A DNA stretch of 20,749 nucleotides from Nitrosopumilaceae archaeon. Its GTDB lineage: Archaea > Thermoproteota > Nitrososphaeria > Nitrososphaerales > Nitrosopumilaceae. The stretch lies in contig CBDATR010000048.1 in assembly GCA_965200155.1 (NCBI GenBank), positions 1-20,749 on the forward strand, given 5' to 3'. The position numbers were made by a program, and so were the translations under genes. Positions within the stretch are counted from its first letter, which is position 1, and the number at the start of each line of letters is the position of its first letter. Positions 3,258-19,723 of the stretch are shown here, one piece after another. Under the pieces are notes generated by a model. It did no database searches. It was given only the letters and a program-made list of their open reading frames with translations, and had not been told where the DNA came from.

Positions 3258-3266
3258 GTTCGGCTT

Positions 3267-3290
3267 ATTAGGTGTAATTTCCTAATTTTT
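3267..3290 (+). terminator. Possible weak intrinsic terminator after the DinB-family gene
   Basis: ATTAGG-N8-CCTAAT stem followed by a T run, 10 nt after the stop codon. The stem is short and AT-rich. Confidence 0.3.
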
Positions 3291-3316
3291 CACTTTGTGT
3301 AAGAAAGCGGAGAAGA

Positions 3317-3472
3317 ATGGCTGATCAAACAATGACTGTTAAAGATGTGACTGAAAATCTCATGGTCAATGAGCATACCATTTATCGAGGTGGACAGTAA
3401 GTTACCCGCTTTCAAGGTGGGTGGTCCTGGTAATTCATGCAGGTAGAGATAGGGAAGTGGATTAAGATGTAA
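3317..3472 (+). pseudogene. Frameshifted excisionase-like (HTH_17/MerR-type) DNA-binding protein
   Basis: GGAG RBS and ATG 3317 give MADQTMTVKDVTENLMVNEHTIYR; shifted frames continue KLPAFKVGG and SW*FMQVEIGKWIK, matching the family pattern MTxxEVAxYLxVxxxTIYRL...LPxFKVGGxWRF...IxxWI. Confidence 0.8.
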
Positions 3473-3683
3473 TATAACGATAGTGGACGTTAAACCTGTT
3501 ACAGATGGGTTAACTAAAATAAGGCAGTTTTGAGAGCGCAAGAGAATCGCTCTTACTTGGGAGGGACAGGCAATTTGGACAGAAGTTGTGTTGGATAACA
3601 AGGAAAACGAATATGTATAGGCGTGTGACTGTTCCAATATTAGGTAACACTTTTGCAAAACAGTTTAATTATACGTGTTGGCG

Positions 3684-5819
3684 ATGCTTAGCCATTTAAA
3701 GCTAAATGAAAAATATCGTACGGGTGATAGTCAACTGATAACTGGTTTTTATGCACCCTGCTTAAAAAATTCTCGACTATACGATCGAGCAGTTGGTTAT
3801 TTCCGTTCTTCTGTTTTCCTTCTAATTGGCCCTGAAGTATTAGATTTTGCAAAACGTGGCGGGAAAATAAGGCTTGTTTGTTCTCCATCAATTTCCCAAA
3901 TAGATATTGATGCTTTAGTTAATGGCTATAAGTCCAGAAAGGAGTTGCTTGATAAATCTTTAAGTGAAGACATTGATGACCTATTAGATAACCGTCAAAT
4001 CGCAAAGAACGTTGAAGCTTTAGCAACCTTAATTGCTGTAGGGTCCCTCGAAGTTAAAATTGCGTTTAAACCTAGAGCTAGTGGTATTTTTCATGAAAAG
4101 CTTGGGTTATTCCACAATGGAGATGATGTTGTTAGTTTTCCAGGTTCAATAAATGAGTCTTGGAGCGGATGGCATGAGCGGGGAAATAGTGAAGCCTTCT
4201 CTGTCTTTTGTAGTTGGTTAGGTGGAAGAGATGACCGCGAAACTAAGTCTGACAAGCGTTATTTTGAAGAGCTTTGGAATGATCAAAGGGATGGTTTAAG
4301 TGTTGAAAGTTTTCCAAATATCGCTTTGGAAAGACTTAAAGTGGTAGCAAAGGGGTCTCTAGATGACATAGATCCGGATGGGTTAACAGATTATTTTACG
4401 ATTGGCGACATTTGCAAAAAAAACGATGAAGATGAGACTTCGCTTTCCCCTCCAAAACGTACTCCTTTAAAGCACCAGTTAGAAGCCATAGAGGCATGGA
4501 AAAAACAAGGAAGACGAGGAGTTTTAGAACATGCTACAGGTAGCGGAAAGACCTTTACTGCTCTTACAGCATTAAAAGAATATTTAGGAGATGATGGTGT
4601 TGCTTTGGTATTAGTCCCTGACCGCTTGTTACATAAACAATGGGGCAAAGAGCTTAAGGAAGAGTTGCCGGACGTCACTATTTTAAAAGTTGGCGATGGG
4701 CATAACCGATGGCGTAAGAATATGGCACTCCGCACCTTTACTCAGCCAGGAAAAGGATTAGGTCCACGAGTTGTTCTGGCTACATTGCCGACAGCTAGGC
4801 TACAAGATTTTATAAATGGAATTTGGCAGGGCGAACATCTCATGGTGGTGGCTGATGAGGTTCATGAGATTGGCAGTAAAAAGAACTCAAAGGTTTTAGC
4901 AATTGAATCTGGTCCACGTCTAGGGCTTAGTGCTACACCGCGTAGATATGGCGACCCAGTTGGTACTGCAAAAATATTCCAGTACTTTAAACAGGTTGTA
5001 GAGCCTCCATTTACATTAGAAGATGCAATAAAACAGAAGAGGCTTGTTGAGTATGAATACTTCCCAGTTCCTATACATTTAACAGCAGAAGAATCAGAGG
5101 AGTGGGAAACAGCTACAAAAGAAATTTCTAAAGAATTTGCTCGCTCTAAGCGTGATGATAGCGGTACACCAATAGTATCTCCACGATTACAAATTATGCT
5201 TATTCAACGATCTCGAATAGCAAAAAAAGCAACTGCTAAAGTTCCTTATGCTGCAAAAATTTTAAGTGAAAAGTTTTTAGAAGGCCAGAGTTGGCTTGTG
5301 TACTGTGAGGATCAATATCAATTGTCCGAAGTGATGGATGCTCTCCGCTCAAGGGGTATTGAGGCATGTGAGTATCATACTAACATGCAAGGGGATGCGA
5401 AGGCTTCACTGGACTGGTTTAAACGCTTTGGAGGTGTAATGGTTTCAATTAGATGCCTTGATCAAGGAGTTGATATCCCTAAGATCTCGCATGCTGTTAT
5501 ATTAGCATCTTCGCAGAATCCTCGTCAATTTATTCAAAGGCGAGGGAGAGTGTTACGTACATACCCAGGTAAGTATCAAGCAGTTATATATGATGCTGTA
5601 GTAGTCCCCATATGCCTTGAAGATGAGCCAGGACAGTTATCATTATTAAAAAGTGAGCTCCAGAGAAGTATCCAGTTTTCAGAGACGGCAATTAATAGAT
5701 CTGGAGCAAATCAATTAAATTCTATAGCAATAGAATTAGGTATTGATCCGGAAGAATTTGGTTTAGTTGATACAGATGGTATAGAAGAACCGGGAGAAAG
5801 TGATGTCAGTCAGGAGTGA
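3684..5819 (+). CDS. PbeA-like PT-associated effector: N-terminal PLD(HKD)-like nuclease domain fused to an SF2 DEAH helicase
   Basis: N-terminal YDRAVGYFRSS, FHEKLGLF...GSINES...GNSE. Helicase Q motif PLKHQ, ATGSGKT, DEVH, SAT, LDQGVDIP, QRRGRVLR. Adjacent to a dnd cluster. Start is ATG 3684 or GTG 3675. Confidence 0.85.
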   Translation: MLSHLKLNEKYRTGDSQLITGFYAPCLKNSRLYDRAVGYFRSSVFLLIGPEVLDFAKRGGKIRLVCSPSISQIDIDALVNGYKSRKELLDKSLSEDIDDLLDNRQIAKNVEALATLIAVGSLEVKIAFKPRASGIFHEKLGLFHNGDDVVSFPGSINESWSGWHERGNSEAFSVFCSWLGGRDDRETKSDKRYFEELWNDQRDGLSVESFPNIALERLKVVAKGSLDDIDPDGLTDYFTIGDICKKNDEDETSLSPPKRTPLKHQLEAIEAWKKQGRRGVLEHATGSGKTFTALTALKEYLGDDGVALVLVPDRLLHKQWGKELKEELPDVTILKVGDGHNRWRKNMALRTFTQPGKGLGPRVVLATLPTARLQDFINGIWQGEHLMVVADEVHEIGSKKNSKVLAIESGPRLGLSATPRRYGDPVGTAKIFQYFKQVVEPPFTLEDAIKQKRLVEYEYFPVPIHLTAEESEEWETATKEISKEFARSKRDDSGTPIVSPRLQIMLIQRSRIAKKATAKVPYAAKILSEKFLEGQSWLVYCEDQYQLSEVMDALRSRGIEACEYHTNMQGDAKASLDWFKRFGGVMVSIRCLDQGVDIPKISHAVILASSQNPRQFIQRRGRVLRTYPGKYQAVIYDAVVVPICLEDEPGQLSLLKSELQRSIQFSETAINRSGANQLNSIAIELGIDPEEFGLVDTDGIEEPGESDVSQE

Positions 5820-6003
5820 CCCTCTGTCAGTGTTGTTAGAAATAAAAGCAACCATGGATACCAATATAGATGATGAATTGGTGAAGAGTTGTTATCAGTT
5901 ACAGTCAGAGCATCAATATGATAATAACCGTGAAACTATGCAAAAAATGCAGGCGCTTATTGAAGAGGCAATTGTTAGTAATGAGGATGGTAATCTCCAA
6001 TGA
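5803..6003 (+). CDS. Small helical dnd-associated protein (PbeB-like by position)
   Basis: GGGAG RBS; start overlaps the end of the helicase gene; stop overlaps the next start (ATGA at 6000-6003). Name is inferred from gene order only. Confidence 0.65.
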   Translation: MSVRSDPLSVLLEIKATMDTNIDDELVKSCYQLQSEHQYDNNRETMQKMQALIEEAIVSNEDGNLQ

Positions 6004-7982
6004 AATTAAAAGAGATCATTATTAGTAATTTTATGCCTTATAAAGGTGAGCAGAAAATTATCTTCCCTCAGGATGAAACAGAAAACGTTATGCTCCTTTT
6101 TGGCGATAATATGAGAGGGAAAACAAGTTTTTTAAACGCTATAAGGTGGGGATTTTATGGTAAGGCGATCGGTCGGCACTTAAAACATATTCCGAGAAAA
6201 CAACTGGTAAATATTGAGGCAGCTAAGGAAAACGATTGGAGTATGTCTATTACCTTAAAGTTTTCCAATTTCGGTAATGAGTATGAATTAAGGAGAAGAA
6301 TAGAAAAAAAATCTCATGTATCCCAGCCTAAAACTGATGGAGATTTTGAACAGGTTTTAGGGTTAAGAATCAATGGTGAAGTTAAACCGAATTATGTGAT
6401 AGATAATGAATTGAACCAGATATCTCCAGAAGAAATCTCTCGTTTTTTCTTATTTGATGGTGAGTTGTTGCAAGAATACGAAAACCTATTGATTGATGAG
6501 AGTGAGCAGGGTGAAAAAATTAAGGAGCATATTGAGCAAGTGCTTGGTGTTCCGGCACTTATTCATGGCAGGGATGAATTATCAAGCCTGTTGAAAGAAG
6601 CAAGAAAAGTTCAAGCTAAAGATGCCAAGAAAAACACGGATTTAAAACACTTCGCAGAACGGCAAAATCAACTCGCGGTAAGGTTGAGTTCTATAGAAAA
6701 CGATTTAAAGGATTTAAAGTCTCAGCGCGACGTTGTTCAAAAAGACATAGATGATATAGATGATGAACTCAAGAATACCGAAGCCGTACAGAGAAAAAAA
6801 TTCGAACTAGAAGGATTGGTGTCTTCTAGAAAGTCAACTGAGTCACAGATTCAAACTCTTGCTAATGAGCAGCGTGTGTTGTTAAAAAAAGCTTACCTAG
6901 ATGTTCTGAATACTAATATGTCGCCATTGTTAGCTGAAGTAAAAGACCGCAGGGATCTAATGCAAAGCATTTCGGAAAGAAAAGCTGTACTTAATTCGCA
7001 GATCAACACATTACAAAAAAGTATTGATGGTCCAACCTGTGCTACCTGTAAACAGATTATACCAGATGAGAAAATACAACCTATCAGAGACGAGATAGCT
7101 AACCTTAGGGCAGAGGAAGAACTTTCATCCGTTGACCCAGAAGAGTTAAAGAGGTTAAACAAGCAAAATGACAGGCTGTCTTTAATACAGTCAGCCAATG
7201 AAGGCGCCCGCCTAATTGAAAATAGTCGTAAAGAAAATAGACTGAAGTTAGAGCTCTGGAGAATAGAGAATAAAGAAGATGAGCTTGAAGCTGAAATTCG
7301 AGAGTATGATACTGACCAAATAATGCGACAGCGTAAAAAACGTGATCAACTTATCGCTCAATTGTCGCATTTAAATTCAGATATTGACAAAACTAAGAAA
7401 GATCATAATAAAAATATAGATGAACAAGATCATATAGCCACTTTGATTTCTAAGAATGTAGGAGCACAAGGACAAAGAAGTTCAATACGTGTAAACATGT
7501 ATCAAGACCTAGAAGCAATTTTCTCCGAAGGAATTGACCGGTTACGAGACGCCCTTAGAACTGATGTTGAGTATCATGCAACGAAGGCATTTGCAGAATT
7601 AACAACGGAAAAAACATACAGTGGTTTACGAATAAATCAAAACTATGGTCTGTCAATCCTAGATCAGGAAGGGCGTGTTCTAAATCAGCGCAGTGCAGGT
7701 GCCGAGCAAGTCGTAGCATTGTCGCTTATTGATGGGCTTAATAGGACTGCTCGGAAAGCAGGTCCAATTGTAATGGATACACCTTTAGGTCGCCTCGACC
7801 CGAAACACCGAGGCAACGTACTGAAGTATCTACCTAAAATGGCTGAACAAGTAGTTCTACTTGTACATGAGGGTGAGATTGACCCCGACCGAGATTTGCA
7901 GAATTTCGCAGAAAGAACTGGGTCTCGTTACACAATAGAGCGTATTTCCGCTACCGAGTCACGAATAGTAAAGGGGAGCTGA
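6000..7982 (+). CDS. PbeC-like Rad50/SMC-type ABC ATPase (DndD paralogue) with central CXXC
   Basis: Walker A GDNMRGKTS, FFLFDGE, long coiled coils around CATC, signature SAGAEQ, Walker B/D-loop IVMDTPLGRLD, H-loop LLVHEGE. Confidence 0.85.
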   Translation: MKLKEIIISNFMPYKGEQKIIFPQDETENVMLLFGDNMRGKTSFLNAIRWGFYGKAIGRHLKHIPRKQLVNIEAAKENDWSMSITLKFSNFGNEYELRRRIEKKSHVSQPKTDGDFEQVLGLRINGEVKPNYVIDNELNQISPEEISRFFLFDGELLQEYENLLIDESEQGEKIKEHIEQVLGVPALIHGRDELSSLLKEARKVQAKDAKKNTDLKHFAERQNQLAVRLSSIENDLKDLKSQRDVVQKDIDDIDDELKNTEAVQRKKFELEGLVSSRKSTESQIQTLANEQRVLLKKAYLDVLNTNMSPLLAEVKDRRDLMQSISERKAVLNSQINTLQKSIDGPTCATCKQIIPDEKIQPIRDEIANLRAEEELSSVDPEELKRLNKQNDRLSLIQSANEGARLIENSRKENRLKLELWRIENKEDELEAEIREYDTDQIMRQRKKRDQLIAQLSHLNSDIDKTKKDHNKNIDEQDHIATLISKNVGAQGQRSSIRVNMYQDLEAIFSEGIDRLRDALRTDVEYHATKAFAELTTEKTYSGLRINQNYGLSILDQEGRVLNQRSAGAEQVVALSLIDGLNRTARKAGPIVMDTPLGRLDPKHRGNVLKYLPKMAEQVVLLVHEGEIDPDRDLQNFAERTGSRYTIERISATESRIVKGS

Positions 7983-7983
7983 G

Positions 7984-8364
7984 ATGACAGAACCAAGCAG
8001 AATTGGACTTACCCCGAAGACAGACTATAAACTTGACGAGTTATTAGAAGAATGGAATCCACAATCTGGTGAAGACGGTGTAAAGCTAATTAAGTTTGAT
8101 ATTTATAGGCTGGCTGTTGCTTTGGGTATGCGCAGAACTGATTTACCTGTGCCACTGAACGATAAAAGTACTTCTAGTTTGCGCGTCAACGAACTAGACC
8201 CAGATGGGATTTTGAGCTTGGCCGTTGAAAGTTTAGGGTTAATTGGACCAGGTGAGTCTCATTATCAATTTATAGAACGTCTGGCAGAAAGGGAGATCGC
8301 AGAGTTGTATGAAAAGTATCAACAAACTGGTCAGTTTCCATTTGAAGAATATTTTGGAGAATAG
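7984..8364 (+). CDS. Small dnd-associated protein (PbeD-like by position, distantly DndE-like)
   Basis: Starts 1 nt after the ATPase stop with a GGGGAG RBS. RIGLTPKTDYKLDEL...IYRLAVALGM follows the same pattern as the DndE N-terminus. Confidence 0.6.
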   Translation: MTEPSRIGLTPKTDYKLDELLEEWNPQSGEDGVKLIKFDIYRLAVALGMRRTDLPVPLNDKSTSSLRVNELDPDGILSLAVESLGLIGPGESHYQFIERLAEREIAELYEKYQQTGQFPFEEYFGE

Positions 8365-8372
8365 GTCTACGA

Positions 8373-11177
8373 ATGGCGTATTTAAAACTCTATTTGTTAA
8401 TACTATCAGAGGATGACCCTTTAACAATCAGCGTTCATAGAGATCTAAATACTCTTGAATCTGAGTGGAATGACTGTAATAAGTTACACAGCGTCGGAAT
8501 TATTCACATAAGTTTTCTTCGACCAAAACCATCAAAGCCGGATGACTTGCTCCGGCATAAAGGTTATGTACTTGTAACAACTGCAGCGAAATGGGCGTTA
8601 CCAGAAATTTATAGATGCTCGAAAGCCATAATTTCAGAGTTGAAACTAACTAATCAAACTATTCCACTTCACGTCCTATTGAGCGGGATCGGCTATGAAT
8701 TGGATGAACCTTCAACTCACTATGAAGATTCTATTGAGAAATCTTCAGGCAAAATGACGATTGTAGAGGCTGCACAGGAGGTTCTAGCTAATAGTGATAG
8801 ACCAATAAATAAGGAAGAAATCTTTGCGGGAATAATCAAGAGAGGACTATATAGGTTCGGTGCTAAGAAGCCAATCAGTGTCTTAGATATTGAACTAAAT
8901 AGGCATACGGTTGGTACAAATTACAGCAACCCAGGTCCATCTCTCTTTAAGAAAATTTCAGATAATCGCTATTTGTTAGTCGATAATGACTTGCCTGAAA
9001 TTGAAGGGTGGTTTAAATCCCTTTCTCAAGTAAATCCAGACCTAGCTGAAGCATCTCGTTCTTACGGGATTTATAATGAGGATTCATATAAGGTCCACCG
9101 CCAAAACTTATCGAATAAGCAGCAAAATCAGTTAGACATCTTTCGCTTCTATCACCATCTTCCGCATATTAGTGAAAGTGACCCTCAATCACTTTTTCAC
9201 ATACTTCCAAATTTTATTCTCAAATCAGATGTGAATGCTATTGAAATGCCAGTAAGAGTACTTAATGTTTTAGGTGCGAATGGTATCAAGAAGATTTCAG
9301 GCCTATCTGGTATATCTACAACTGAAATGTTGAATTGGCCTAACTTTGGCAAAAAATCAGTTGTTGATTTGAGTAGTAGCCTTATAGATGCAGTCAATAG
9401 ACTTTCTAGATCTATAGATTATTCTAAAACTGAATCTTCAAGTCTCGTTAGTAATAAGTCTGATCTGCCTGAAGAAAGACAATTGGATAATGATTGTGCA
9501 GACTATCAATTGGAACTGGCATCTTCTATACCACTTAAAGCCCACTTAGAGCAGGCTTTGGGCTCTCTTGAAGAGAAGGATAGGAGAATTATAGAGTGCC
9601 GTACTGGGTATAACGGTCAAGTTATGACATTGGAAGCCGTCGGAGAACTTTTAGGAGTGACGCGGGAACGAGCACGTCAGATTCAAAAACGATATGTTGA
9701 TCGGATTATTGAGTTGGAGTATTGGGACGATTGTATAGCCAATAAAATAGGGCAGTTGTTGTTAGACCGAAAGAGACCCCTTTATTTAGAAATGCTTGAA
9801 ATTGAAGACCCCTGGTTTAAAGGGTATATGGGAAATTACTCACATTTGGCATCTATTATTGAGTTGTTTTCAGAAAATAAGATTCGAGTAATTAAAATAA
9901 ATGGTGCTAGTGTTGTAACTCGTATGAAGGTCGATGCCTGGTATTGTGTCGTAAATAATCTCCGCAAAAGTTTGAAAGATAAAGCTGAAGAGGGTGGATG
10001 GACTCGGCAAGATATTGACATAATATTATCGACTGAGCTGGCTCAGAATGGAGCCGAAGAGCTATTCCCTTTGCTTTGGGAGGAGTTTGTGGGAAGTTTG
10101 CAGTTTGAGACTAAAGACAGTAATGCAAAACTTATTGGGTTTGGCAAATCCGCAGAATCCGCAGTATCAATTGTTCTTGCTAGAGCAGAAAAGCCACTAC
10201 ATTATAGTGAAATTGCAGAGAGGGCTACCGAGATTTATGGCAAACTTGTCAGCGAACGACTAGCCCATAACGCATTACCGAGATTGGGGGCAAAATTATA
10301 CGGACGAGGCGTATATGGACTACCTCATCACAATCCAATATCTGATCGCATGTGTAAAAACCTCCGGTTAATTGTTTCAAAAATGATCCAAGACGGACCT
10401 ATTATGAAACAGTGGCATTGTGCTGAAATTACTTCCCAACTAAAGAAACAGTTTCCAACCCTCCCTGTAGAACTTGATCACTATATATTGAATATTATCC
10501 TAGAAGATGTTGAAAATATTAGCTATCTAAATCGTATGGTTTGGGCTCAATCCAACTCTGGTCATTCTGCAGATGATCGCGTTGATATGGCTGATGCTTT
10601 TACAAGAATTCTCGAGGACAACGGAGGGCCGCTGAAAGGTAAAGAGCTAAAGGAACGGTTAAGCCAGATTAGAGGTACAGTGGAAAATCCGCAAATCCAG
10701 CCTAACGACCAAATGATTAAAATAGGCCCTGATTTTTGGGGACTCATAGATCGAGATATCGGCGGTAGTAAATCAACTATAGAAGAAAAATTAAATTCAA
10801 TGCACGAGATTCTAATTTCTAGGCAGAAAGGGTTACATGTCTCAGAGGTGGGAGAATATATTGAGGTCAAAGATAACTCGAGTGAGTTACCATCTGCTTA
10901 CGCGCTATTATATTTAGCCCAGCGTGATGACCGATTTTATCTTGGTAGATCAATGTATATTGGGTTATCTGAATGGGGAGGTGATATACGTCGTATCAAT
11001 GTTTCACAAGCTGTTAGAAAGCTTCTAAACAATATGACCAAGCCAAAGACATTAGCAGAAATTAGTATGTTGGTTGAAGATATGGTGGAAATGCCAATAG
11101 ATTCAACTTTGAGCAATGTGCTAAAAAATGAAGGTGCAATTTATGATCATGGGAGGCGTACCTGGTCAAAAGGGTAG
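8373..11177 (+). CDS. Large multidomain DNA-binding protein: HARE-HTH + RNAP alpha-CTD + sigma-70 region 4 + repeated winged-HTH units
   Basis: MTIVEAAQEVL..SDRPINKEEI (from 8754); MPVRVLNVLGANGI...PNFGKKSVVDL (~9230-9400); LEEKDRRIIECRTG...MTLEAVGELLGVTRERARQI (~9540-9700); repeats such as VLARAEKPLHYSEI and ILEDNGGPLKGKEL. Starts 8 nt after the previous stop with GGAG upstream. Confidence 0.8.
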   Translation: MAYLKLYLLILSEDDPLTISVHRDLNTLESEWNDCNKLHSVGIIHISFLRPKPSKPDDLLRHKGYVLVTTAAKWALPEIYRCSKAIISELKLTNQTIPLHVLLSGIGYELDEPSTHYEDSIEKSSGKMTIVEAAQEVLANSDRPINKEEIFAGIIKRGLYRFGAKKPISVLDIELNRHTVGTNYSNPGPSLFKKISDNRYLLVDNDLPEIEGWFKSLSQVNPDLAEASRSYGIYNEDSYKVHRQNLSNKQQNQLDIFRFYHHLPHISESDPQSLFHILPNFILKSDVNAIEMPVRVLNVLGANGIKKISGLSGISTTEMLNWPNFGKKSVVDLSSSLIDAVNRLSRSIDYSKTESSSLVSNKSDLPEERQLDNDCADYQLELASSIPLKAHLEQALGSLEEKDRRIIECRTGYNGQVMTLEAVGELLGVTRERARQIQKRYVDRIIELEYWDDCIANKIGQLLLDRKRPLYLEMLEIEDPWFKGYMGNYSHLASIIELFSENKIRVIKINGASVVTRMKVDAWYCVVNNLRKSLKDKAEEGGWTRQDIDIILSTELAQNGAEELFPLLWEEFVGSLQFETKDSNAKLIGFGKSAESAVSIVLARAEKPLHYSEIAERATEIYGKLVSERLAHNALPRLGAKLYGRGVYGLPHHNPISDRMCKNLRLIVSKMIQDGPIMKQWHCAEITSQLKKQFPTLPVELDHYILNIILEDVENISYLNRMVWAQSNSGHSADDRVDMADAFTRILEDNGGPLKGKELKERLSQIRGTVENPQIQPNDQMIKIGPDFWGLIDRDIGGSKSTIEEKLNSMHEILISRQKGLHVSEVGEYIEVKDNSSELPSAYALLYLAQRDDRFYLGRSMYIGLSEWGGDIRRINVSQAVRKLLNNMTKPKTLAEISMLVEDMVEMPIDSTLSNVLKNEGAIYDHGRRTWSKG

Positions 11178-11540
11178 GTAACAATATCACTATGTTCCAA
11201 AAGAGCAGAATATGCAATGCATCCCTTATAATTAAGCCGCCCAACACTTTTCGAACATAAGCCAAGTCATGCAGTGCCTTAGTATCTAAGAGCGTATGCA
11301 CGATCTGAAAGCCAAACAGACGATTCATAAGAAGACACCTTGCTTGATTTGACAAAGAGAACAAGGTAATCCTGTTGAGCATTATTTTGAAGGCGGATAG
11401 CTGACAAACTCCGGTGTTTTCGCGGTGCTTTGTTTTTTCTTTAGGTGCTTAGATACCCGGCACTCAATCGTAGCGATTTAACAGGTACTTGCTGGTATCA
11501 TTAGGCCTGTACTGGAGACCTTTTTAGAGTGCTAAGAACC

Positions 11541-12480
11541 TGTAATCTTCCTCCCCCTTATTATCAGTTTTTTAGTAGAAGGTTTAGTTGAATTTAGCAG
11601 TTGTCTTGGTGGTTCGCCTCCGATGGCAATTTGGACTGCTCATTATTGGTTTGCAACAGCCACTGTGTAGCTAAAAGTTGGACAAGGAATAGTTCTCAAA
11701 CTGATGCAGGTCCAGCCATTCATGCCTGACTGCGCGATTAAACCGTTAAATATACGAATTTTGTGTCGGATTGCTCAATTGACCAGACTTGGTTATGGGC
11801 TTTAGGCTCATTCAGTTCAAGGTAATCCCGTTGTCTCCGTCGTTTGGGTTTGATCTGCTGGTTCAGTTTCAGCTATTGATACATTCGATACATCCGCTTA
11901 TGGTTCCAGCCACAGCCTTTCACTTTGCGCAGATACAGAAAACATAATTCAAAGCTCCAGCACTTATATGTGCTAATCAGGCTAAACAGCCAATCCGCAA
12001 TCTGGTTATTTTCACTAGACAACCGATCTGCATATTGATAGCAGTTCTCGCTGATTCCAAATGTTACATAGACTAATCGGTTACTGATGCTATAACGTTC
12101 ATCGACCTTCCCCATCTCTTTGTGGCGAGGTGGTTGCACAACTTTTTCTATAGAGTTTCCTGCCGAAGTTCAGCCTTAATCCGCTCTTCGGTTTACATCT
12201 TCTTCAGCCAGGCACTTCCGACTATTCGTTGCTTCAAGAGTTTCATAGCGGTGCATCAATACAAACGTATTTGGATCGCCACTAATAAATCAGGGCAGTT
12301 CTCACACCATGACCACGGGCAAGATTAACTACCGTAGTACCAGCCTCATGCTGCTTCAGGACAGAAAGAATCTAGTAGTCTGACAAGTTAACTTTTTCAT
12401 AGAAAACTCCTTTGACTAACATCATAAAAGTCACTACTAAAATATACGATCAATTTTCGGGGGGAGGCAGGGGGATTGAA
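11541..12480 (-). mobile_element. Decayed IS3-family insertion sequence with internal deletion
   Basis: OrfA relic from ATG 12400 (MKK../SDY*ILSVLKQHEAG...Y*WRSKY...LKKM). OrfB relics FLYLRKVKGCGWNHKRMYRMY, AHNQVWS, NPTQNSYI*RFNRAVRHEWL, AIGGEPP. Degenerate ends TGTAATCTTCCTCCCCC (11541) and GGGGGGAGG...GATTGAA (~12459-12480). End points are approximate. Confidence 0.85.
11584..12400 (-). pseudogene. IS3-family transposase OrfA/OrfB pseudogene
   Basis: Multiple in-frame stops and frameshifts; the segment between QVWS and NPTQN is missing. Confidence 0.85.
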
Positions 12481-12719
12481 TCGAATTACGATGTTGGATT
12501 GAAAGGGATAAATACCTCAATAAAGAACCTGACAATACTCTAGACAGGTTCAAATAAATTAACTGAAATTGAGAGTTTTGATGGTAAAGAGGCTGTGTAT
12601 GAAGCAACTTCATTTCCACTTAACAGAATTGTATCTCAGAAGCAATATTGGGGAGAAACTGAAGTTACGAATATGCTGGTCTAAAAAAAATTATCGCTAG
12701 AACTGATTTTAGGGCCTAA

Positions 12720-13079
12720 CTAAGTAGCGCAGGCAAAAAGGTCAGAAATACTAGATACTTTCTGATTCATGTAAGAAATCCCTCTGTGTAAATGAATTTT
12801 AAACCAACGATTTGGGTTGGCCTTTTCTAAGCCGTCTTTGATAAGTCGTTCTTTTACCAGTGCTTCAAACAATTCCGCGTCCGTACCAGCAAAAGTTTTC
12901 CAGGTCATTTCGACGTTGCTGTCTGTAGGAATTTCTTCATCAGGCGGGATTGAGTTCTCTGCTAACGAATAGCAGAGTGCCCAACGACATAGCGTATTCC
13001 AGTTTTCGATACCGGTTCGTCGTTTTAGCGTAATCAATTGTTGTTTTCCTTTTTCGGAAATTCTTACAGTTTCTATCAT
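12720..13079 (-). CDS. dndE: DNA sulfur modification protein DndE
   Basis: VRISEKGKQQLITLKRRTGIENWNTLCRWALCYSL, DSNVEMTWKTFAG, HLHRGI; directly downstream of dndD. Confidence 0.95.
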   Translation of the reverse strand: MIETVRISEKGKQQLITLKRRTGIENWNTLCRWALCYSLAENSIPPDEEIPTDSNVEMTWKTFAGTDAELFEALVKERLIKDGLEKANPNRWFKIHLHRGISYMNQKVSSISDLFACAT

Positions 13080-13088
13080 CGTGAGTGC

Positions 13089-15050
13089 CTAAAAATAGCC
13101 AGCCGAGATGGTCGAAGTTTTCACAGACTGATCGTATTTTATCTGATATTCCTTCCCAATGTTTTTGGCGAGCGTGTCGCGATTTTCACAGTCTATTTCT
13201 GTATCAGTTGAAAGCAAAATGACCTGGTGGCTTGCATTTGGGAAATAATTATTAATTAAGTGTTCCCTATGCTCGCTATCTAAACGTCCTAAGGGAGTAT
13301 CAATAATGGCGGGTAAGGGCTGTCCTGAAGCTTTTGCTAAGCCCCAGAGTATTGATATAGCAAGAAGTTGTCGTTCACCAGCAGATAGGCGGTTGGTAGG
13401 GATTACTTCGTCATTGTATCCAATTACATCGATAGAAAAATTTTCGTTGATACGAATTTTATTAACTAGGTCATTTTTTCTTACAAGTTCTGTAAAGGAT
13501 TCTTTAATTAAGTATTGCAGCCTATCAATATGCTTGCCAACAAGTTGGGCTTTAAAAAGAGATAATATCTTGTCAATGTCTTTCGTCCGCTCAACAACAT
13601 GTTTATCTATGCTGTTATCAAGACGCTCTTCATTGACTTTGTGATAGAGTCGATTGAGTTCTTTATTTCGAAGTTCTAATGAGCGGAAGTTGTGATCGTC
13701 TAATCGCTTCAGGGATTCGATCTCGATTGACAGGGTATGATGCTTTGTCTCAGCATCCCTTAGTTGGTGAGCAATCTGTTGGATTGTTTCACCAGGAGGG
13801 ATTGATGAAATTTGACTCTCTAAGGCGGAAATTTCATATTCAAGATTACGTCTTTCTTTAAGAAGTTCGTTAGCTTCATCGCGCAAGTGAGAAAAAACTT
13901 CTCTTTCGTAGTGTTTGAAAATGACTGGGTCTGTTTCTAGCAGTGTTTTGGTTTCGGCAATATTTTTTCGCTCTTTGATATCTGCCTCGAGCAAATCTCT
14001 GAGTAAATCCGTACCATTATTGTTAATAGATCTAGAATGGAATTTAGCCAAAATTGACTTGTCTCTTTCATCTAGAATACCGATGAGGAGACGGTTTTTT
14101 AGTATTGAATGCTCTTCAGTTGAACGCTGATGAGCTGAATTAATGAGATCTTCGACAATGCAGAGTGGTGCTTTGGATTCTGCGAATTTTTTTATCTTTG
14201 ATTCGTTGTCGAGCATTTTGTTCTTTGCAAACTCATATTGCTGTGCGACGAATTCCCTATTTTCAAATAGATCCCCACCCACCTTACGGTATTCTTCTTT
14301 CAATTGTTTTATAAGATTATTTAATTGATCCAATTCCGTATTCTTGCTTGCAATATGATCGATATACTCCTTTTGTTTTTGGGTGAGTTCACTAACATCT
14401 TTATTGGCTTGTTCAAGTTTGAATGACCAATTCCCTTCGCTTTTAGCAACTGAACGTCTACGTGCTATCGTAACTAGGTCTACTTGCAGTCGTTCAACAA
14501 TCCCAAGTCCCAATAACGAATATATTCCGGTACGTAAAATGTCTTTAGTTTTTGAAGGGTCTGCTAGCTGAGCAATTTGTTCTCCATCAAAGAAGAACAA
14601 CCTGGAAACGCTAGAGGGAATAAACTCATGGACACACTCATACCATTGTTCTGAAAGTACCGGATCTAACTCACCATTTCGAAGAACCTGAAAATTTTCT
14701 TTAAGACTTTTCCCCGTGGTTCTCCAGTAGCGTTTTAAATGGTATTCTTGCTTGACCCCATTTTCGTATCGAATAAACGCTAACTCCAGAGCGGAGCCTT
14801 CCTTTGGGTTAACATGTCGATTGATCATATTACGTAAATAGGTATCGTAGGGTGCTCCTTCTCTAGTTGCAAAGTTAGCAAATTTACCAAAAAGTGTCAG
14901 TTGAAGCGCCTCAAGCATTGTGGTTTTTCCACTACCATTGAGTCCACCAAATAATATGATAGGTTTTCTTTTGCTAGCCGGACTTAGATCGACCATATGG
15001 CGACCTTTGAAAATTCCAAAATTATGAAGAACAAGTTTAGAAAAAATCAT
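13089..15050 (-). CDS. dndD: DNA sulfur modification ATPase DndD
   Basis: PIILFGGLNGSGKTT, LFFFDGEQI, coiled coil, LSAGERQLLAISILWGLA, IIDTPLGRLDSEHR, YFPNASHQVILLSTDTEI. Confidence 0.96.
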   Translation of the reverse strand: MIFSKLVLHNFGIFKGRHMVDLSPASKRKPIILFGGLNGSGKTTMLEALQLTLFGKFANFATREGAPYDTYLRNMINRHVNPKEGSALELAFIRYENGVKQEYHLKRYWRTTGKSLKENFQVLRNGELDPVLSEQWYECVHEFIPSSVSRLFFFDGEQIAQLADPSKTKDILRTGIYSLLGLGIVERLQVDLVTIARRRSVAKSEGNWSFKLEQANKDVSELTQKQKEYIDHIASKNTELDQLNNLIKQLKEEYRKVGGDLFENREFVAQQYEFAKNKMLDNESKIKKFAESKAPLCIVEDLINSAHQRSTEEHSILKNRLLIGILDERDKSILAKFHSRSINNNGTDLLRDLLEADIKERKNIAETKTLLETDPVIFKHYEREVFSHLRDEANELLKERRNLEYEISALESQISSIPPGETIQQIAHQLRDAETKHHTLSIEIESLKRLDDHNFRSLELRNKELNRLYHKVNEERLDNSIDKHVVERTKDIDKILSLFKAQLVGKHIDRLQYLIKESFTELVRKNDLVNKIRINENFSIDVIGYNDEVIPTNRLSAGERQLLAISILWGLAKASGQPLPAIIDTPLGRLDSEHREHLINNYFPNASHQVILLSTDTEIDCENRDTLAKNIGKEYQIKYDQSVKTSTISAGYF

Positions 15051-15064
15051 AGATATTTAGTCGT

Positions 15065-16636
15065 TTAGAAGCCGGTGATCTCATCATAAAGGAGCTCATT
15101 CTCTGAAATATCAGAAGTTATTCGATTATCAATACGCTCTTTTGACGACTGTCTGTCTCTTGCAAATGCAAGCGCATGTTCTGGGTCTTTAAAGGCATAA
15201 CTATTGAGCATTTTGTTAACTTCATCAAATAGCCGAGAACGCCTAACTAGCGTTCGATGCCCGTGTTCGATATGCAATAAATTACGCGTCAGGTCGAATA
15301 GCTCAGAACCAATTTTTGAATCAATCTGTTCGCAAATGTCTTTTAGAATATTTAGGTCGCGGACATTAAATGGTTGTGCGTCGATTCTTTCATTGCCAGG
15401 GTAAGGAGTCCCTTTGACATTCTCATAAATACCAGGTAATAAATCTTCAATTTCATGTTTGTCCATGATCCATATGCGTCGAATTTCTTCTAGGTCTTCT
15501 AGGGTGAGGAGTTCGATATCCTTTACTAGATTAGGTCCAAGTCGACGAACGGATTCTTCGGCTCTTAGTACCGCCTCTAATAACTGGGCTCGAAAATGTT
15601 GCTTGTAGGGACCATGTACTAACTGATCATTAAAGAGCATCAGAGATCCGTTCATCTTGCGATAATCACGATTCTCGCGTTCTTTTCGGAGTTTTTCATA
15701 CTTTTTGTCTTGCTTGGAATCTGTAATGTCGAGCCACTTTGAACGCAATTCGAGTAACGGCAACATCCATTCCTTCTCCGCGTCATTCTGGATCATTGCT
15801 GATAATGATCTGTCCTCGTTGACGAGCGTGCAGACATAACATCCGAAGCGGCTGTCACCGCAACTTGGTGTGCTTGTATCGACAACAAGTGGACATTCAC
15901 CATCAGCTGTCGCACCTTGGTACAGATTTAAGAGTTCTTCATTTGCGTATCCCCAAGGGTTTTTTACCTGCATTAGGTACTGCCAGACATCATCGTCGTG
16001 CCAATCTTGAATTGGGGAATACACCCATACGCGGTCTAAGGAGGCATTTCGACTAAGTAGATTGCGTGTACTGCCTTCAGCGTATTTTTCAATAGTCGAG
16101 GCACGGCTATTGCTCTCTGCTTTGCGGATTCCCAAAACTAAGATCGCTTCTCCATTACTCTGTACGACGTCTTTAATAAAGTCATTGGAGGGAGTTATCT
16201 TCAACCGAAAGGTGCACCAGCGAAATTTAGGTCTTGGTGCAGGATACCCGCGTCCAATGAGATTGACCCAAAAGCGGTCTTTAACTGCTGGGGTAAGTCG
16301 ATGGGCTTGAATAGGTAGTTTTTGGTCAATCGCTGCCTGAGCCATGGTCTCCAAAGATCGCCCGACCCATGTGGCAACGATAGGATTTTCAACCAATGTG
16401 TCGGTACTAATCACATGGAGTGGTTTGATCTGTTTTTCTGGTGGCAACTGTGCAAGGGCATTCCACATTAGTTGTAAGACAGCCGTCGAGTCTTTGCCAC
16501 CACTATAGCCAAGTACCCAAGGAATATCGTCGCTTAGGTATAATTCTTGAGCTTGCTTCATTAGAGGTTCAATAGTTCCGGAAAATCCAGCTACTCTAAA
16601 CGCGGTTTTGCGATTGCTAGTTACATGTTCAATCAT
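15065..16636 (-). CDS. dndC: DNA phosphorothioation sulfurtransferase DndC (PAPS-reductase family, Fe-S)
   Basis: PP-loop YSGGKDS, DTLVENP, GYPAP..FRWCT, ECPLVVD...SCGDSRFGCYVCT. Start set at ATG 16636 (GAGG RBS, overlapping the dndB stop) rather than 16690. Confidence 0.96.
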   Translation of the reverse strand: MIEHVTSNRKTAFRVAGFSGTIEPLMKQAQELYLSDDIPWVLGYSGGKDSTAVLQLMWNALAQLPPEKQIKPLHVISTDTLVENPIVATWVGRSLETMAQAAIDQKLPIQAHRLTPAVKDRFWVNLIGRGYPAPRPKFRWCTFRLKITPSNDFIKDVVQSNGEAILVLGIRKAESNSRASTIEKYAEGSTRNLLSRNASLDRVWVYSPIQDWHDDDVWQYLMQVKNPWGYANEELLNLYQGATADGECPLVVDTSTPSCGDSRFGCYVCTLVNEDRSLSAMIQNDAEKEWMLPLLELRSKWLDITDSKQDKKYEKLRKERENRDYRKMNGSLMLFNDQLVHGPYKQHFRAQLLEAVLRAEESVRRLGPNLVKDIELLTLEDLEEIRRIWIMDKHEIEDLLPGIYENVKGTPYPGNERIDAQPFNVRDLNILKDICEQIDSKIGSELFDLTRNLLHIEHGHRTLVRRSRLFDEVNKMLNSYAFKDPEHALAFARDRQSSKERIDNRITSDISENELLYDEITGF

Positions 16637-17723
16637 TCTTGCCTCGGTTAAATGCATCTTCCACGCGTTGTTGCTCGGGAGATAACGCAAGGTTCAATTG
16701 CTGTTTGAAGTAGTTAGCTGTTAAAACGACATTATTTGAGGCTTTTTGCATTCGCCCACCTAGCATTGCACGTCCTTCCCAAGTTTTAGCATTCGATCGT
16801 CTCCAATTTACTTTTTTTAGTAGTTTTAAGCGTTTTTTCTGATCTATTTTAGATAGGTTTAGAAGTTCATTACCCATCAAGCCTAATGCTTGTAGCACGA
16901 TAGCATGACAGTGGACGAAGTCAGTGCGAATCTCACCAGAGGTGATTTTGGCATCTTTTACGAGTTGCCATTCTCTGATTTGTTTGCCTACTTCATCCCA
17001 AAACGCTATGGCCAACCTCGTAGCCTGATCACCGGATTGAATTTCTAGTCCATTGAGTAATGCTTGATTCGCAGAATGAATTGCACTGAGTGTAAAAAGC
17101 TTTCTCGACCGGGGTGACAGTGTTGATTTTTCCATTTCAACTAGGTCTTTGAAAATTGCCGATTTTAAAACAGTCAATTTAGTTATTTGTGCTGCGTCGT
17201 CTCGATGATCGTAGAGTAGTCCGAGGGATTTACTAGGGCGTACAGCATGACGATTCAAATCTGCAAACATCTGCTGGCAGCGCTCCAGTCCTCTATCGAT
17301 AAAGAAAACTACGGAAATGCTTTCGTCACCCAGTCTAGGCTCTTTTTTTAACGCTTCTGCAATTGCAGCGCGTCTATGTTGGCCATCGTTAATAATAAAC
17401 TGAGAGTTCATATCGATCTTCAGTTTGCCAATACGACTAATTTCTCCAGAGTCTCCAAATGGCTCAAACGTGACTCGCCCGTCGACTGAAGCGGTAATTG
17501 CAGAAAAGCAATAATCCTTTTTATTATTGACAATATATTGCGCCATTTCCGGAATGCGATTTTTATTTAGGATGCGTTGAGCTCTAAGTTCTGGCACCAA
17601 CTCCTCTTCGTCAAATGTGAAGATTTTTGGTATCAGTTTGAGAGGGCACATTGATGTGTAGTATTCGCGCTCTGCTTGAACACCACGAATGGCTGGAAAG
17701 ATATATTCGAAATTGCTACTCAT
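16629..17723 (-). CDS. dndB: DNA sulfur modification regulator DndB (DGQHR domain)
   Basis: FPAIRGVQA, RAQRILNKNRIP, INDGQHR, QQMFADLNRHA; first gene of dndBCDE. Confidence 0.96.
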   Translation of the reverse strand: MSSNFEYIFPAIRGVQAEREYYTSMCPLKLIPKIFTFDEEELVPELRAQRILNKNRIPEMAQYIVNNKKDYCFSAITASVDGRVTFEPFGDSGEISRIGKLKIDMNSQFIINDGQHRRAAIAEALKKEPRLGDESISVVFFIDRGLERCQQMFADLNRHAVRPSKSLGLLYDHRDDAAQITKLTVLKSAIFKDLVEMEKSTLSPRSRKLFTLSAIHSANQALLNGLEIQSGDQATRLAIAFWDEVGKQIREWQLVKDAKITSGEIRTDFVHCHAIVLQALGLMGNELLNLSKIDQKKRLKLLKKVNWRRSNAKTWEGRAMLGGRMQKASNNVVLTANYFKQQLNLALSPEQQRVEDAFNRGKND

Positions 17724-17752
17724 GATTATTTAGGATTTGGCATCTTTTCCGA

Positions 17753-17804
17753 TGTTTGTATATTAACATGCAAACAATGATAGTTGTATAATAAAAAACA
17801 AACA
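17753..17804. promoter_or_regulatory. Divergent dndB/dndA promoter region with two tandem imperfect palindromes
   Basis: TGTTTGTAT-N6-ATGCAAACA (17753-17776) and TAGTTGTAT-N6-AAACAAACA (17781-17804). Plus-strand TTAACA(17763)-N18-TATAAT(17787); minus-strand TGtTAATAT around 17760-17768. Confidence 0.6.
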
Positions 17805-17815
17805 AGTTTTTTGGA

Positions 17816-18940
17816 ATGACAATTTATTTAGACTGCAATGCAACTACTCCCCTGAATCCCAAAGTTGTTGAGTGTGTTCGTTTTTATATGGAACAGGAGT
17901 ATGGGAACGCAGGTAGCAGAACCCACGTTTTTGGTGCTGCGGCAAAAGCAATTGTTGAGAAAGCCCGCGATCAAGTGGGGAAGGTGGTTGAAGCGAGCCG
18001 TGACGAGGTTATTTTTACCAGCGGAGCGACAGAAAGTAATAATTTGGCAATTCTTGGTCTAGCCTCCTGGATGAAGGAGACGGAGAAGACCCGCCTAATT
18101 ACGACGGCTGTTGAGCATAAAGCGGTGCTAGAACCTTGCAGTGTGCTAGAGGCTCGAGGTTTTGAAGTTACATATTTATCGCTGGGAGAATCAGGGGTGC
18201 TTGATCCCGAGCATTTGATGTGTGAGATGAGCGATGAGGTGGGCCTTGTTTCTATAATGCAGGTGAATAATGAAACTGGCTGTATTCAGCCTGTAGAGGA
18301 GATTGCTTCGTTGCTTGATGGTAAAGATGCTTATTTCCACGTTGATGCAGCTCAGGGCTTTGGAAAGCTAAATGAACCCATTCATCACGAGCGTATAGAT
18401 TTAATCAGTGTTAGTGGCCACAAAATATATGGTCCCAAGGGGGTGGGTGCTCTAATTACGCGCCGCCGTGACTATGAGCGGCCACCTCTTGAACCACTCT
18501 TTCATGGTGGAGGACAGGAAAAAGGTTTAAGACCGGGGACATTGCCAGTAGCGTTAATTGCTGGTTTGGGCGTAGCGGCAGAACAACTAATGGAAATTGA
18601 AGCTGAGTGGTGGCGAGACACTGAGATCATTAAAAAACAGGCAACTGAAGCTTTGAGTTTACTGGATGCTAAATTTCATGGTGAACAGACAATGCCAAAT
18701 ATTATTAATTGCTCTCTACCAGGTATCAATTCTGAAGCGGCAATCGTGGCGCTTAAAGACATTGTGGCTATTTCCAATGGGTCAGCATGTACCTCTTCTG
18801 CATACTTACCATCCCATGTGCTTATGGATATGGGTATTGGCGAGAAAGAAGTAAAAGGTGCTTTGCGGCTATCTTGGGGACCAAGTACACCGGACATACC
18901 TTGGGAAGCGATTATTCAAACTTTAGGGTCCCTGCGGTAG
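17816..18940 (+). CDS. dndA: Cysteine desulfurase DndA
   Basis: YLDCNATT, FTSGATESNN, HVDAAQ, PLP lysine in SGHK, catalytic Cys in GSACTS. Lacks the IscS C-terminal tail and is divergent from dndB. Confidence 0.93.
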   Translation: MTIYLDCNATTPLNPKVVECVRFYMEQEYGNAGSRTHVFGAAAKAIVEKARDQVGKVVEASRDEVIFTSGATESNNLAILGLASWMKETEKTRLITTAVEHKAVLEPCSVLEARGFEVTYLSLGESGVLDPEHLMCEMSDEVGLVSIMQVNNETGCIQPVEEIASLLDGKDAYFHVDAAQGFGKLNEPIHHERIDLISVSGHKIYGPKGVGALITRRRDYERPPLEPLFHGGGQEKGLRPGTLPVALIAGLGVAAEQLMEIEAEWWRDTEIIKKQATEALSLLDAKFHGEQTMPNIINCSLPGINSEAAIVALKDIVAISNGSACTSSAYLPSHVLMDMGIGEKEVKGALRLSWGPSTPDIPWEAIIQTLGSLR

Positions 18941-19723
18941 ATGGTCCAGTGTCTCTTCTAGAAGTTGCGGTTCAAGAGGAGGGCATGGTCGAGAAAATTA
19001 ATGTCTTGGTCACGCAATTTTGTTTTTATCCGTCCGGTTAGTTTGGGAACAGGCTAATTTCAATCATCGTAAACCATTATGTTTGACTTCACGCTAGTAA
19101 TGTCAACTTAAATTGGACTTACGGATTCTAAATTGCCATAAACGTTGCATAGCACAACCAACGTACACCCGAATCTCCAGAGGGCAATTATTTAAATACT
19201 CACTTCAAACTACTAAATCGTGTTGCCCATTTAGGATTGAGGCAGGCAATATCTCATTAGCTCTTAGAACAGACAAGCCTCATAAAATTCGCCAGGGTGA
19301 CGACACCTTCTAAGTGAAGTTTGTCTTCTTCGCGAGCAGATGAATACTTACCAAAGTGTGATTTGATATCAAGTTACAGTGAGTTGCCCATCCTCTGGAA
19401 TACTGAACGTTTGCTGAAAAAACTTAGTGTGAAATACACTAGCAAACCATCACGATCCTTCGACTGATTGGTATTAATAATCTGCTTATCAAACTGCATA
19501 CTACAAAACTTGAAAGCTTTGTTGTGAGAGCTTAGTAGATGGCAAATTTGTTCTGATTGCTCAGGTTCATAATTAGTCGGAATCCGCCTAAATTTGAAGT
19601 GTTTTGCCAAAAAAACGTACCTTGTTTTTCCAATGACGATTTTGATTTTCCGAAAGTTAATCCAACGTTATACGGTAGCAGGCTCAATTCACCTATAAAT
19701 ATCTGCGTGAAGAAGCGACGAAC

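Follow-up and report, generated by a model that had tools for sequence, protein, structure and literature searches.

What does a DNA phosphorothioate (PT) writer of the Dnd type do opposite a Pbe effector operon, and what part is played by the fifth gene in which that operon ends? Both questions are raised by contig CBDATR010000048.1 (C48), a complete contig of 20,749 nucleotides that was analysed at full length (the window) and belongs to a 51-contig metagenome-assembled genome (MAG) from a sponge metagenome. Ten genes, all full-length and with intact catalytic motifs, occupy positions 3675–18940. pbeA, pbeB, pbeC, pbeD and a fifth gene, here called G5, run towards dndE, dndD, dndC and dndB, and dndA diverges from dndB. 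The locus is of a known kind, DndABCDE with a Pbe/CxC system, in a conserved five-gene variant on a strain-variable island. We favour, with a confidence slightly above even, the explanation that a PT writer and a five-gene Pbe effector share this island. The main interest lies in G5, since one Pbe clade carries this apparently enzyme-free protein built from the promoter-reading parts of RNA polymerase.

The Dnd writer and the Pbe operon

The writer side of the locus comprises the following features.

12720–13079, minus strand: dndE (TIGR03184, 109.6 bits against a cut-off of 71.85; Pfam DndE, E = 1e-36)
13089–15050, minus strand: dndD, an ATP-binding cassette (ABC) ATPase without a Cys hook (TIGR03185, 573.8 bits against 245.85)
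15065–16690, minus strand: dndC, a sulfurtransferase resembling phosphoadenosine phosphosulfate (PAPS) reductase (TIGR03183, 632.2 bits against 290.4)
16629–17723, minus strand: dndB, a DGQHR/ParB-superfamily protein (TIGR03233, 547.1 bits against 328; DGQHR at residue 113)
17724–17815, no strand: divergent control region between dndB and dndA
17737–17764 and 17763–17792, plus strand: promoter-like sites (10/12 and 11/12 matches)
17816–18940, plus strand: dndA, a class-V cysteine desulfurase divergent from dndB (TIGR03235, 476.8 bits, narrowly under the cut-off of 480)

DndC, DndD together with DndE, DndB and a dedicated DndA beside the operon are all present, and DndB, DndC, DndD and DndE each score above their NCBIfam equivalog cut-offs. 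The intact dndA and dndBCDE described in an earlier note on this DNA were thereby recovered in place. DndA also matches Pfam Aminotran_5 (234 bits) and the PADLOC profiles SspA (415 bits) and DndA (396 bits), and it has the SGHK and SACTS motifs with the pyridoxal-phosphate lysine and the cysteine. DndD of the window has no CxC or CxxC motif. The profile match of DndC begins at residue 44, with SGGKDS at residue 63, and the true start of dndC probably lies downstream of the TTG at 16690.

The two promoter-like sites of the control region are among the three best in 3200–19200, where 29 such sites were found overall against 36.9 expected by chance. The earlier note had also called the system DndB-regulated. 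An intact dndB agrees with this; the DndB operator TACGN10CGTA had no exact match and three one-mismatch matches (3.08 expected), none of them in the dndB–dndA region. Reading by eye, we found in this region, at 17740–17775, an inverted pair TGTTTG ... CAAACA, 12 nt apart and overlapping the promoter-like sites, which is a candidate operator.

The effector side is encoded on the opposite strand.

3675–5819, plus strand: pbeA, a fusion of a single-HKD (phospholipase D-type) nuclease and a superfamily 2 (SF2) helicase (PADLOC PbeA, E = 2.2e-213, 708.6 bits, residues 5–679)
5800–6003, plus strand: pbeB, a small protein of 67 aa (Pfam PF20306 Sp-DndD, E = 4e-12, 46.5 bits against a cut-off of 27.2)
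6000–7982, plus strand: pbeC, an ABC ATPase with a Cys hook, 660 aa (PADLOC PbeC, E = 7.7e-297, 984.2 bits)
7984–8364, plus strand: pbeD, predicted from its fold to be DndE-like, with two ribbon-helix-helix-like units
8373–11177, plus strand: G5, a predicted enzyme-free DNA-binding protein of 934 aa, co-directional and 8 nt after pbeD

In order, the first two junctions are overlaps of 20 nt and 4 nt (ATGA) and the next two are gaps of 1 nt and 8 nt, so that the operon facing the writer is as intact and tightly coupled as previously described, and the arrangement of five effector genes in convergent operons also held. (The pbeA start had been placed at the ATG at 3684.) Its members are those of a Pbe system: an HKD–SF2 PbeA, a small PbeB between pbeA and pbeC, a PbeC with a Cys hook and, at fold level, PbeD. 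This Pbe identity rests on PADLOC for PbeA and PbeC, on Pfam Sp-DndD for PbeB and on a DndE-like fold for PbeD.

PbeA matches Pfam ResIII, DEAD and Helicase_C, and PLDc_2 with 21.9 bits, under its cut-off of 27. The motifs HEK, GSIN, GSGKT, DEVH, SATP and QRRGR are present, and all four of the motifs that were compared are kept in 35 of the 36 relatives spanning them. NCBIfam TIGR04095 matches only the helicase part (325 bits, under the cut-off of 600).

PbeC has a Walker A motif and a CATC hook (CxxC) at residues 347–350. This hook is kept in all 42 clade relatives spanning the apex (42/42), and two distant PbeC proteins have CIC. The ATPase had been described as SMC-like, that is, as resembling the structural maintenance of chromosomes (SMC) proteins. 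We reject that assignment: Pfam SMC_N reaches 28 bits where its cut-off is 40, and no hinge family was matched. The NCBIfam DndD model gives 162 bits, below its cut-off of 245.85. PbeC is instead an ABC ATPase of the DndD-like kind that bears a Cys hook, in agreement with the Pfam results and with the re-annotation given in the relevant passages of PMC10853773.

PbeD had no match in the PADLOC, NCBIfam or Pfam profile libraries, a probability of 10.7% against the DndE family by hhalign, and nothing under E = 1 in a profile search of PDB sequences. A model from 14 homologs (predicted local distance difference test, pLDDT, 86.2) shows two strand-helix-helix units. Among its Foldseek matches to PDB, the top 12 listed are all DndE (4lrv, 7x4e, 5wtu), with probabilities of 0.97–1.00, template modelling scores of 0.49–0.70 and E-values of just 0.017–0.12. 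PbeD is thus predicted to be DndE-like at fold level only, in line with its published description as a DndE cognate.

G5, a protein of promoter-reading domains

G5 combines five clear winged-helix domains, and possibly a sixth, with a domain like the C-terminal domain of the RNA polymerase alpha subunit (alpha-CTD) and a sigma region-4 domain. Pfam recognises HARE-HTH, RNA_pol_A_CTD and Sigma70_r4, and the other assignments come from an AlphaFold model (pLDDT 77.6). Its parts include the following.

Residues 1–105: N-terminal alpha/beta domain, no assigned fold
Residues 395–443: Sigma70_r4 match
Residues about 450–592: central domain, no assigned fold
Residues 592–653, 655–733, 799–868 and 875–934: winged helices from structure searches
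Near residues 740–768: possible further winged helix, at low confidence (WH_Rok, E = 0.025 in the window)

In one relative of G5, P0054, WH_Rok reaches 8.6e-06 and 26.2 bits, with a cut-off of 27.6. No enzyme domain was found in G5 by Pfam, NCBIfam, PADLOC, Foldseek or VIA-align.

The two polymerase-like modules are close to their housekeeping counterparts, with 33% identity to the E. coli alpha-CTD and 29% to SigA region 4. We aligned 26 homologs (39–80% identity) and examined which residues are conserved. R295, N298, G326 and S329, which align to VR..N and NLGKKS of the E. coli alpha-CTD, are invariant, as are R431, E432, R433, R435, Q436 and Q438, which align to TRERIRQI of SigA region 4. 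We take these invariant residues to be the UP-element and −35 contact residues; the alpha-CTD-like domain would keep its minor-groove contacts and the sigma domain its −35-reading helix. G5 may therefore be a DNA-targeting or licensing subunit, which would bind promoter-like DNA (A/T-rich UP-type plus −35-type) and direct or gate PbeA, PbeC and PbeD there. The presence of a protein without an enzyme domain in a nuclease operon fits such a role.

The same two modules suggest a different role, in which G5 would be a bait mimicking RNA polymerase: phage proteins that hijack the alpha-CTD or sigma region 4 would engage the bait and so switch on PbeA. The alpha-CTD and sigma region 4 are targets of phage appropriators and ADP-ribosyltransferases, and G5 holds just these two, near in sequence to the housekeeping proteins and with key residues invariant. 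A duplicated alpha-CTD region in the G5 homolog of locus L012 points the same way. However, invariance falls on the residues that contact DNA, a pattern more simply explained by a DNA reader; a bait would have no need of five clear winged-helix domains, and no phage partner is known. We regard the bait as decidedly unlikely. If it were true, transcription hijack, besides a missing PT mark, would trigger PbeA, which would put a guard or decoy layer into a restriction-like system. A broader form of the idea, in which G5 mimics the two promoter-reading modules of RNA polymerase and is wired to the nuclease, either parking Pbe on promoter-like unmarked DNA or baiting phage factors, is in our judgement unlikely.

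Two known protein types were considered for G5 and rejected. Sigma regions 2 and 3 had no Pfam match at E ≤ 0.001, and with region 4 alone and no region 2, G5 is not a sigma factor of the sigma-70 family. NF041931, the MzaA model, gives 42.1 bits against a cut-off of 800 and matches region 4 only (residues 376–438); beyond this cross-match, PADLOC-DB v2 has no model for G5.

In total, 118 G5 homologs were found. Those that have NCBI names are called 'sigma factor-like helix-turn-helix DNA-binding protein', 'alpha C-terminal domain-containing protein' or something similarly generic, and come from Vibrio, Aliivibrio, Shewanella, Endozoicomonas, Amphritea, Oleispira, Photobacterium and related MAGs. 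The homolog at L012:10001-13198 has 1065 aa and matches query residues 211–344, the alpha-CTD region, twice in tandem, which indicates a duplicated alpha-CTD. At L069:9902-11287, a 461-aa protein consists of an alpha-CTD and sigma region 4 only and is 26% identical to G5 residues 287–724; its upstream neighbours are nusA, infB, rbfA and a gene resembling threonyl-tRNA synthetase, and it has no defence context. A search of viral contigs gave three pattern matches to G5, none of which was confirmed. In a class-level sample around the MAG, G5 occurred in one of 401 genomes, the MAG itself; this sample carries no information, as the contig is probably foreign to the taxon of the MAG. A complex prediction for G5 residues 1–592 with PbeD (score 0.00, mark 0.32) is evidence neither way.

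As for earlier descriptions, a G5-like protein is absent from the main text of PMC10853773 as searched, from PMC12839542, and from the portions of PMC6459918 that were consulted (its abstract, its sections 8 and 10, and further passages), for which no term search of the full text was made. It is possible that G5 was described earlier in Krishnan et al. 2020, in the 2012 HARE-HTH paper or in supplements.

A conserved cassette and how it may work

Is this arrangement peculiar to the window? Loci were collected by a search with the alignment of 26 G5 homologs, which gave 14 loci in genome records and 39 in metagenomes. Four distant metagenome loci were set aside, and the remaining 49 close loci correspond to 42 distinct ones at 97% DNA identity over G5. 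Of the 41 loci with at least 450 bp of DNA before G5, 40 have pbeD as its immediate upstream neighbour; the remaining one, L041, is a contig full of frameshifts and carries pbeD as well. All of pbeA–D are found in 29/31 loci with at least 4.7 kb upstream, and convergent dndE and dndD in 27/30 with at least 6 kb downstream (exceptions L013, L014 and L049). Among the 14 genome loci, pbeA, pbeC and pbeD precede G5 in every one and pbeB, detected by tblastn at the same position, in 13. In 12 of them dndD, dndC and dndB run towards G5, dndE was detected in 11, and dndA diverges from dndB in 10. L006 stops 2.5 kb past G5, and in L014 IS21 and unrelated genes stand in place of dnd. The carriers among these records include Endozoicomonas, Vibrio, Aliivibrio, Amphritea, Oleispira, Halioglobus, Cellvibrio, Cycloclasticus and Alteromonadaceae. 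The ten genes in their convergent order form a conserved cassette.

Among Pbe modules, G5 is specific to a single clade. A 401-genome sample of the order containing a Vibrio carrier had eight genomes with PbeA. The three close ones (at least 64% identity) all have G5, one of these cassettes being in decay, and the five distant ones (29–34% identity) have no G5 within the regions fetched. To follow co-variation, we calculated Spearman correlations of identity to the proteins of the window over 25 full cassettes, which are not independent loci. The values were 0.92 for PbeC–G5, 0.83 for PbeA–PbeC and 0.84 for DndD–DndB. Judged by this co-variation, G5 belongs to the Pbe module, varying with Pbe and not with Dnd. 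The identity of DndB to that of the window falls into two groups, 39–48% and 57–78%.

These results bear on whether G5 is a mere transcription regulator, one that activates or represses the pbe or dnd operons without being part of the effector. Its promoter-reading domains and the NCBI name of its relatives, which refers to a sigma factor-like DNA-binding protein, would suit a regulator. Against this, G5 has 934 aa and at least seven DNA-binding domains, far more than operon regulators, and, lacking sigma region 2, cannot act as a sigma factor. It moreover closes the operon at a distance of 8 nt from pbeD, tracks the divergence of PbeC (0.92), and stays with pbeABCD where dnd is absent (L014 and L049). 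We consider a purely regulatory role very unlikely.

Some relatives differ in their additional genes. A small Mrr_cat restriction endonuclease follows dndA directly at L002:19357-20169, L010:19525-20334 and L011:16452-17240; the window lacks it. In L002 the N-terminus of this enzyme matches Pfam HARE-HTH; in L010 and L011 there are just tblastn matches to the HARE-HTH segment of G5. L025:4941-14050 is a decaying cassette, with an internal TAA stop in pbeA and a split G5, two of whose pieces are about 1.16 kb apart, with overlapping query ranges.

The locus had been taken to use Pbe instead of DndFGH. There is indeed no dndFGH in the island, and TIGR03236, TIGR03237 and TIGR03238 had no match in the assembly of the window, a result whose scope is this MAG; the contig is probably misbinned there, and therefore it cannot be stated that dndFGH is missing elsewhere in the genome. 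The search for dndH works, because TIGR03237 found it in four of the five related, cassette-bearing genomes tested. In three of the 14 genome loci (L002, L010 and L013), a dndH open reading frame (ORF) of ~1,715 aa ends just upstream of pbeA. With dndH directly upstream of the same pbe cassette in three relatives, the two effectors co-exist and do not replace each other. Pbe with G5 is not a substitute for DndFGH, and the 'instead' of the earlier reading falls away.

How might the cassette work? DndA would take sulfur from cysteine, as its family membership and published work on the family suggest, and DndC, DndD and DndE, again judged by their families, would put it into the DNA backbone at short consensus sites as PT. 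DndB, like other members of its family, would restrain expression from the divergent dndB/dndA region. PbeC and PbeD may load on and scan DNA, PbeA would act on DNA without the PT mark, and PbeB may be a small regulator. The expected outcome would be PT-dependent defence, in which writer and effector communicate via the PT mark on DNA and not by co-evolved protein contacts. How Pbe finds or spares DNA is a disputed question, for which a DNA-reading subunit would give a testable handle.

Several points weigh against this explanation. L014 and L049 carry pbeABCD and G5 with no dnd in the 7.8–10 kb of downstream DNA available, and in L013 dndE was not detected by tblastn, a diverged ORF lying in its place. 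Co-variation between Pbe/G5 and Dnd is weak (G5–DndD 0.33, PbeC–DndD 0.41), and passages of Xiong 2019 (PMC6459918) give a Pbe–Dnd co-variation of rho 0.107. The 2024 reappraisal, in the parts of PMC10853773 that treat Pbe, doubts it as a PT-dependent restriction partner and offers a PbeB-gated suicide model. On the G5 side, the conserved surface residues of the alpha-CTD and sigma region 4 are equally expected of an RNA polymerase mimic with other ends, and either of the regions without an assigned fold (1–105 and about 450–592) could hide an unrecognised activity. The insertion sequence (IS) fragment in the spacer described below implies some local decay.

In a rival reading, Pbe–G5 would be independent of PT, as a stand-alone or abortive-infection system in which PbeB checks the HKD nuclease until a phage cue and Dnd is only a frequent neighbour. 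This is argued in passages of PMC10853773, and according to the corresponding sections of PMC6459918, 320 of 553 pbeAC have no dnd nearby. The weak co-variation, the lack of dnd downstream in L014 and L049, and dndFGH beside the same cassette in L002, L010 and L013, where PT therefore already has another reader, agree with it. On the other hand, convergent dndE and dndD follow G5 in 27/30 loci, a geometry that is constant though the Dnd lineage differs, and PT dependence was experimentally shown for the archaeal system in the portions of Xiong 2019 (PMC6459918) concerned with it. We consider PT independence unlikely and retain the PT writer with a five-gene Pbe effector.

The island, its host and known systems

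The cassette lies on an island that is present in some strains and missing in others. The features that delimit and interrupt it are as follows.

3258–19730, no strand: strain-variable island of 16,473 bp, holding all ten dnd, pbe and G5 genes and minor ORFs
3290–3658, minus strand: 122-aa ORF at the left island edge, without a Pfam, NCBIfam or PADLOC match and without a tblastn match in related loci
11178–12719, no strand: spacer of 1,542 bp between the converging operons, with no ORF above 88 aa that has a start codon
11873–12169, minus strand: IS3-family transposase fragment (weak NCBIfam transpos_IS3 match, E = 0.0027, model positions 99–176 of 369)
18941–19730, no strand: gene-free island tail of 790 bp, with only ORFs of up to 91 aa; the 91-aa ORF, the one covered by the family scan, has no family match

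Contigs of four public runs (X2, X4, X5 and X7) were aligned onto 2500–20749. In three of the four (X4, X5 and X7, from one study), contigs join 3257 directly to 19731 and skip 16,473 bases, and because of these joins we define 3258–19730 as a strain-variable island. A single 16,554-nt contig of run X2 covers 3228–19781 with 0 differences, and the flank contigs of that run have variant letters and a higher summed depth, which is not equivalent to copy number. Past 3257, one X2 flank contig continues for at least 255 letters that do not resemble the island; island-less strains may hold other DNA at this site and not a clean empty site. The same samples thus hold strains with and without the island, a natural pair for tests of PT marking and phage load in situ.

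In its host, a bacterium of the sponge metagenome, the island separates a dinB-family gene from bolA, the two genes converging on the site. The left junction is the final base of the dinB-family stop codon, and the right junction, at 19731, is 7 nt inside the bolA 3' end; BolA of a relative has 108 aa and not 107, and differs in the C-terminus region. The flank proteins are 97–100% identical to proteins each found on a contig of 1,794,440 bp elsewhere, and PbeC, PbeD, G5, DndE, DndD, DndB and DndA have no relative of at least 90% on a contig of that length. Rfam, tRNA and repeat searches of the window and island gave only short two-copy repeats at chance level, and no integrase, tRNA or flanking direct repeat was found at the island.

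Contig C48 is probably misbinned. Its GC content is 0.409 against ~0.47 in the large contigs of the MAG, it correlates with the remainder of the MAG in tetranucleotide composition at 0.43, where the large contigs exceed 0.9, and its housekeeping flanks are likewise compositional outliers. Compared with the genus of the MAG, the left flank matched none of nine relatives, the right flank gave just 45–82-nt matches in two of nine, and the flank GDPD protein matched none of three. We also observed at least three compositional groups within the MAG: the large contigs, about 30 small contigs with GC of 0.355–0.426, and five contigs with GC of 0.49–0.52 and a tetranucleotide correlation to the rest of 0.23–0.27. 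C48 lies outside the main group, and the bin looks chimeric.

The spacer is single-copy in the assembly. The IS3 fragment in it is an open frame of 98 aa from stop to stop, and a terminator scan gave seven sites against 11.8 expected, none usable in the spacer. In relatives, the distance between G5 and dndE is at most 347 bp in five loci and 1.76–5.3 kb in 24. All nine annotated long-spacer loci have a ParB/DndB-like gene, and eight of the nine also a partner gene for an ion-channel-like or unknown protein. The spacer is a variable accessory slot that is empty in the window, where no remnant of the accessory genes of relatives was found and the sole matches are cross-hits to dndB. At least three kinds of two-gene insert occur in the slot, and are candidate accessory defence pairs: a ParB_N-like gene (like PADLOC PDC-M38A/PD-Lambda-5_A) with an ion-channel protein, a DndB/DpdB-like gene with an unknown protein of ~300 aa, and a GIY-YIG-like with a DndB-like gene. 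The inserts lie at L003:7210-9394, L004:12857-15090 and L007:8803-11161; at L008:12887-14781, L009:12758-14640 and L012:13510-15368; and at L005:12989-14801 and L014:12407-13678.

Could the island be a decaying, non-functional remnant? The IS3 fragment, 1.5 kb of non-coding spacer and the 790-bp gene-free tail are what decay would leave, and related cassettes do decay, as L025 shows with its stop in pbeA and split G5. In the window, however, the ten genes are full-length, catalytic motifs are intact and the junctions are tight. Contigs of two metatranscriptome libraries, in which DNA is not excluded, also cover 30/30 bins of 2500–20749, the spacer included; such coverage does not prove transcription, as the contigs show neither strand nor transcript ends. 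We judge decay extremely improbable and continue with an intact writer and Pbe effector.

Bacterial pairing of a Dnd writer with PbeABCD, which had been put forward as new, is already published. Parts of Xiong 2019 (PMC6459918) count 235 bacterial pbeAC beside dndCD, calling the pairs 'widespread among Bacteria', and 25 bacterial clusters with both pbeAC and dndFGH, and passages of PMC10853773 put at 936 the bacterial taxa in which DndD-anchored and CxC-anchored systems stand in tandem. The nearest known relative is DndCDEA-PbeABCD of Haloterrigena jeotgali A29, for which sections of PMC6459918 report PT-dependent antiviral activity shown experimentally, with no DNA degradation seen. It has the same pbeA-B-C-D order and protein types, adjoining PT-writing dnd genes. 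Unlike it, the window has dndB, a divergent dndA, converging operons and G5, and its PbeC hook is CxxC and not CxC. PbeA of the window is ~30% identical to the distant Pbe clades sampled.

CxC ABC-ATPase-anchored systems (Krishnan et al. 2020, as re-described in passages of PMC10853773) share the Cys-hook ATPase, the cognate DndE, the HKD-SF2 helicase and the small disordered Sp-DndD protein. The main text of PMC10853773, as far as it was searched, mentions HARE-HTH solely as a fusion to a restriction endonuclease, and a sigma-related HTH (helix-turn-helix) solely as part of a DndH variant. DndBCDE-DndFGH of Salmonella enterica Cerro 87 has the same writer with a dndB regulator and the same logic of a PT self-mark, whereas the island and assembly of the window have no dndFGH match. 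Finally, MzaA, a sigma-70-family protein of the MZA anti-phage system (NF041931, PADLOC PDLC02203), is likewise a large defence-associated protein with a sigma region-4 HTH; its match to G5 is restricted to region 4, and the remaining architecture is unrelated.

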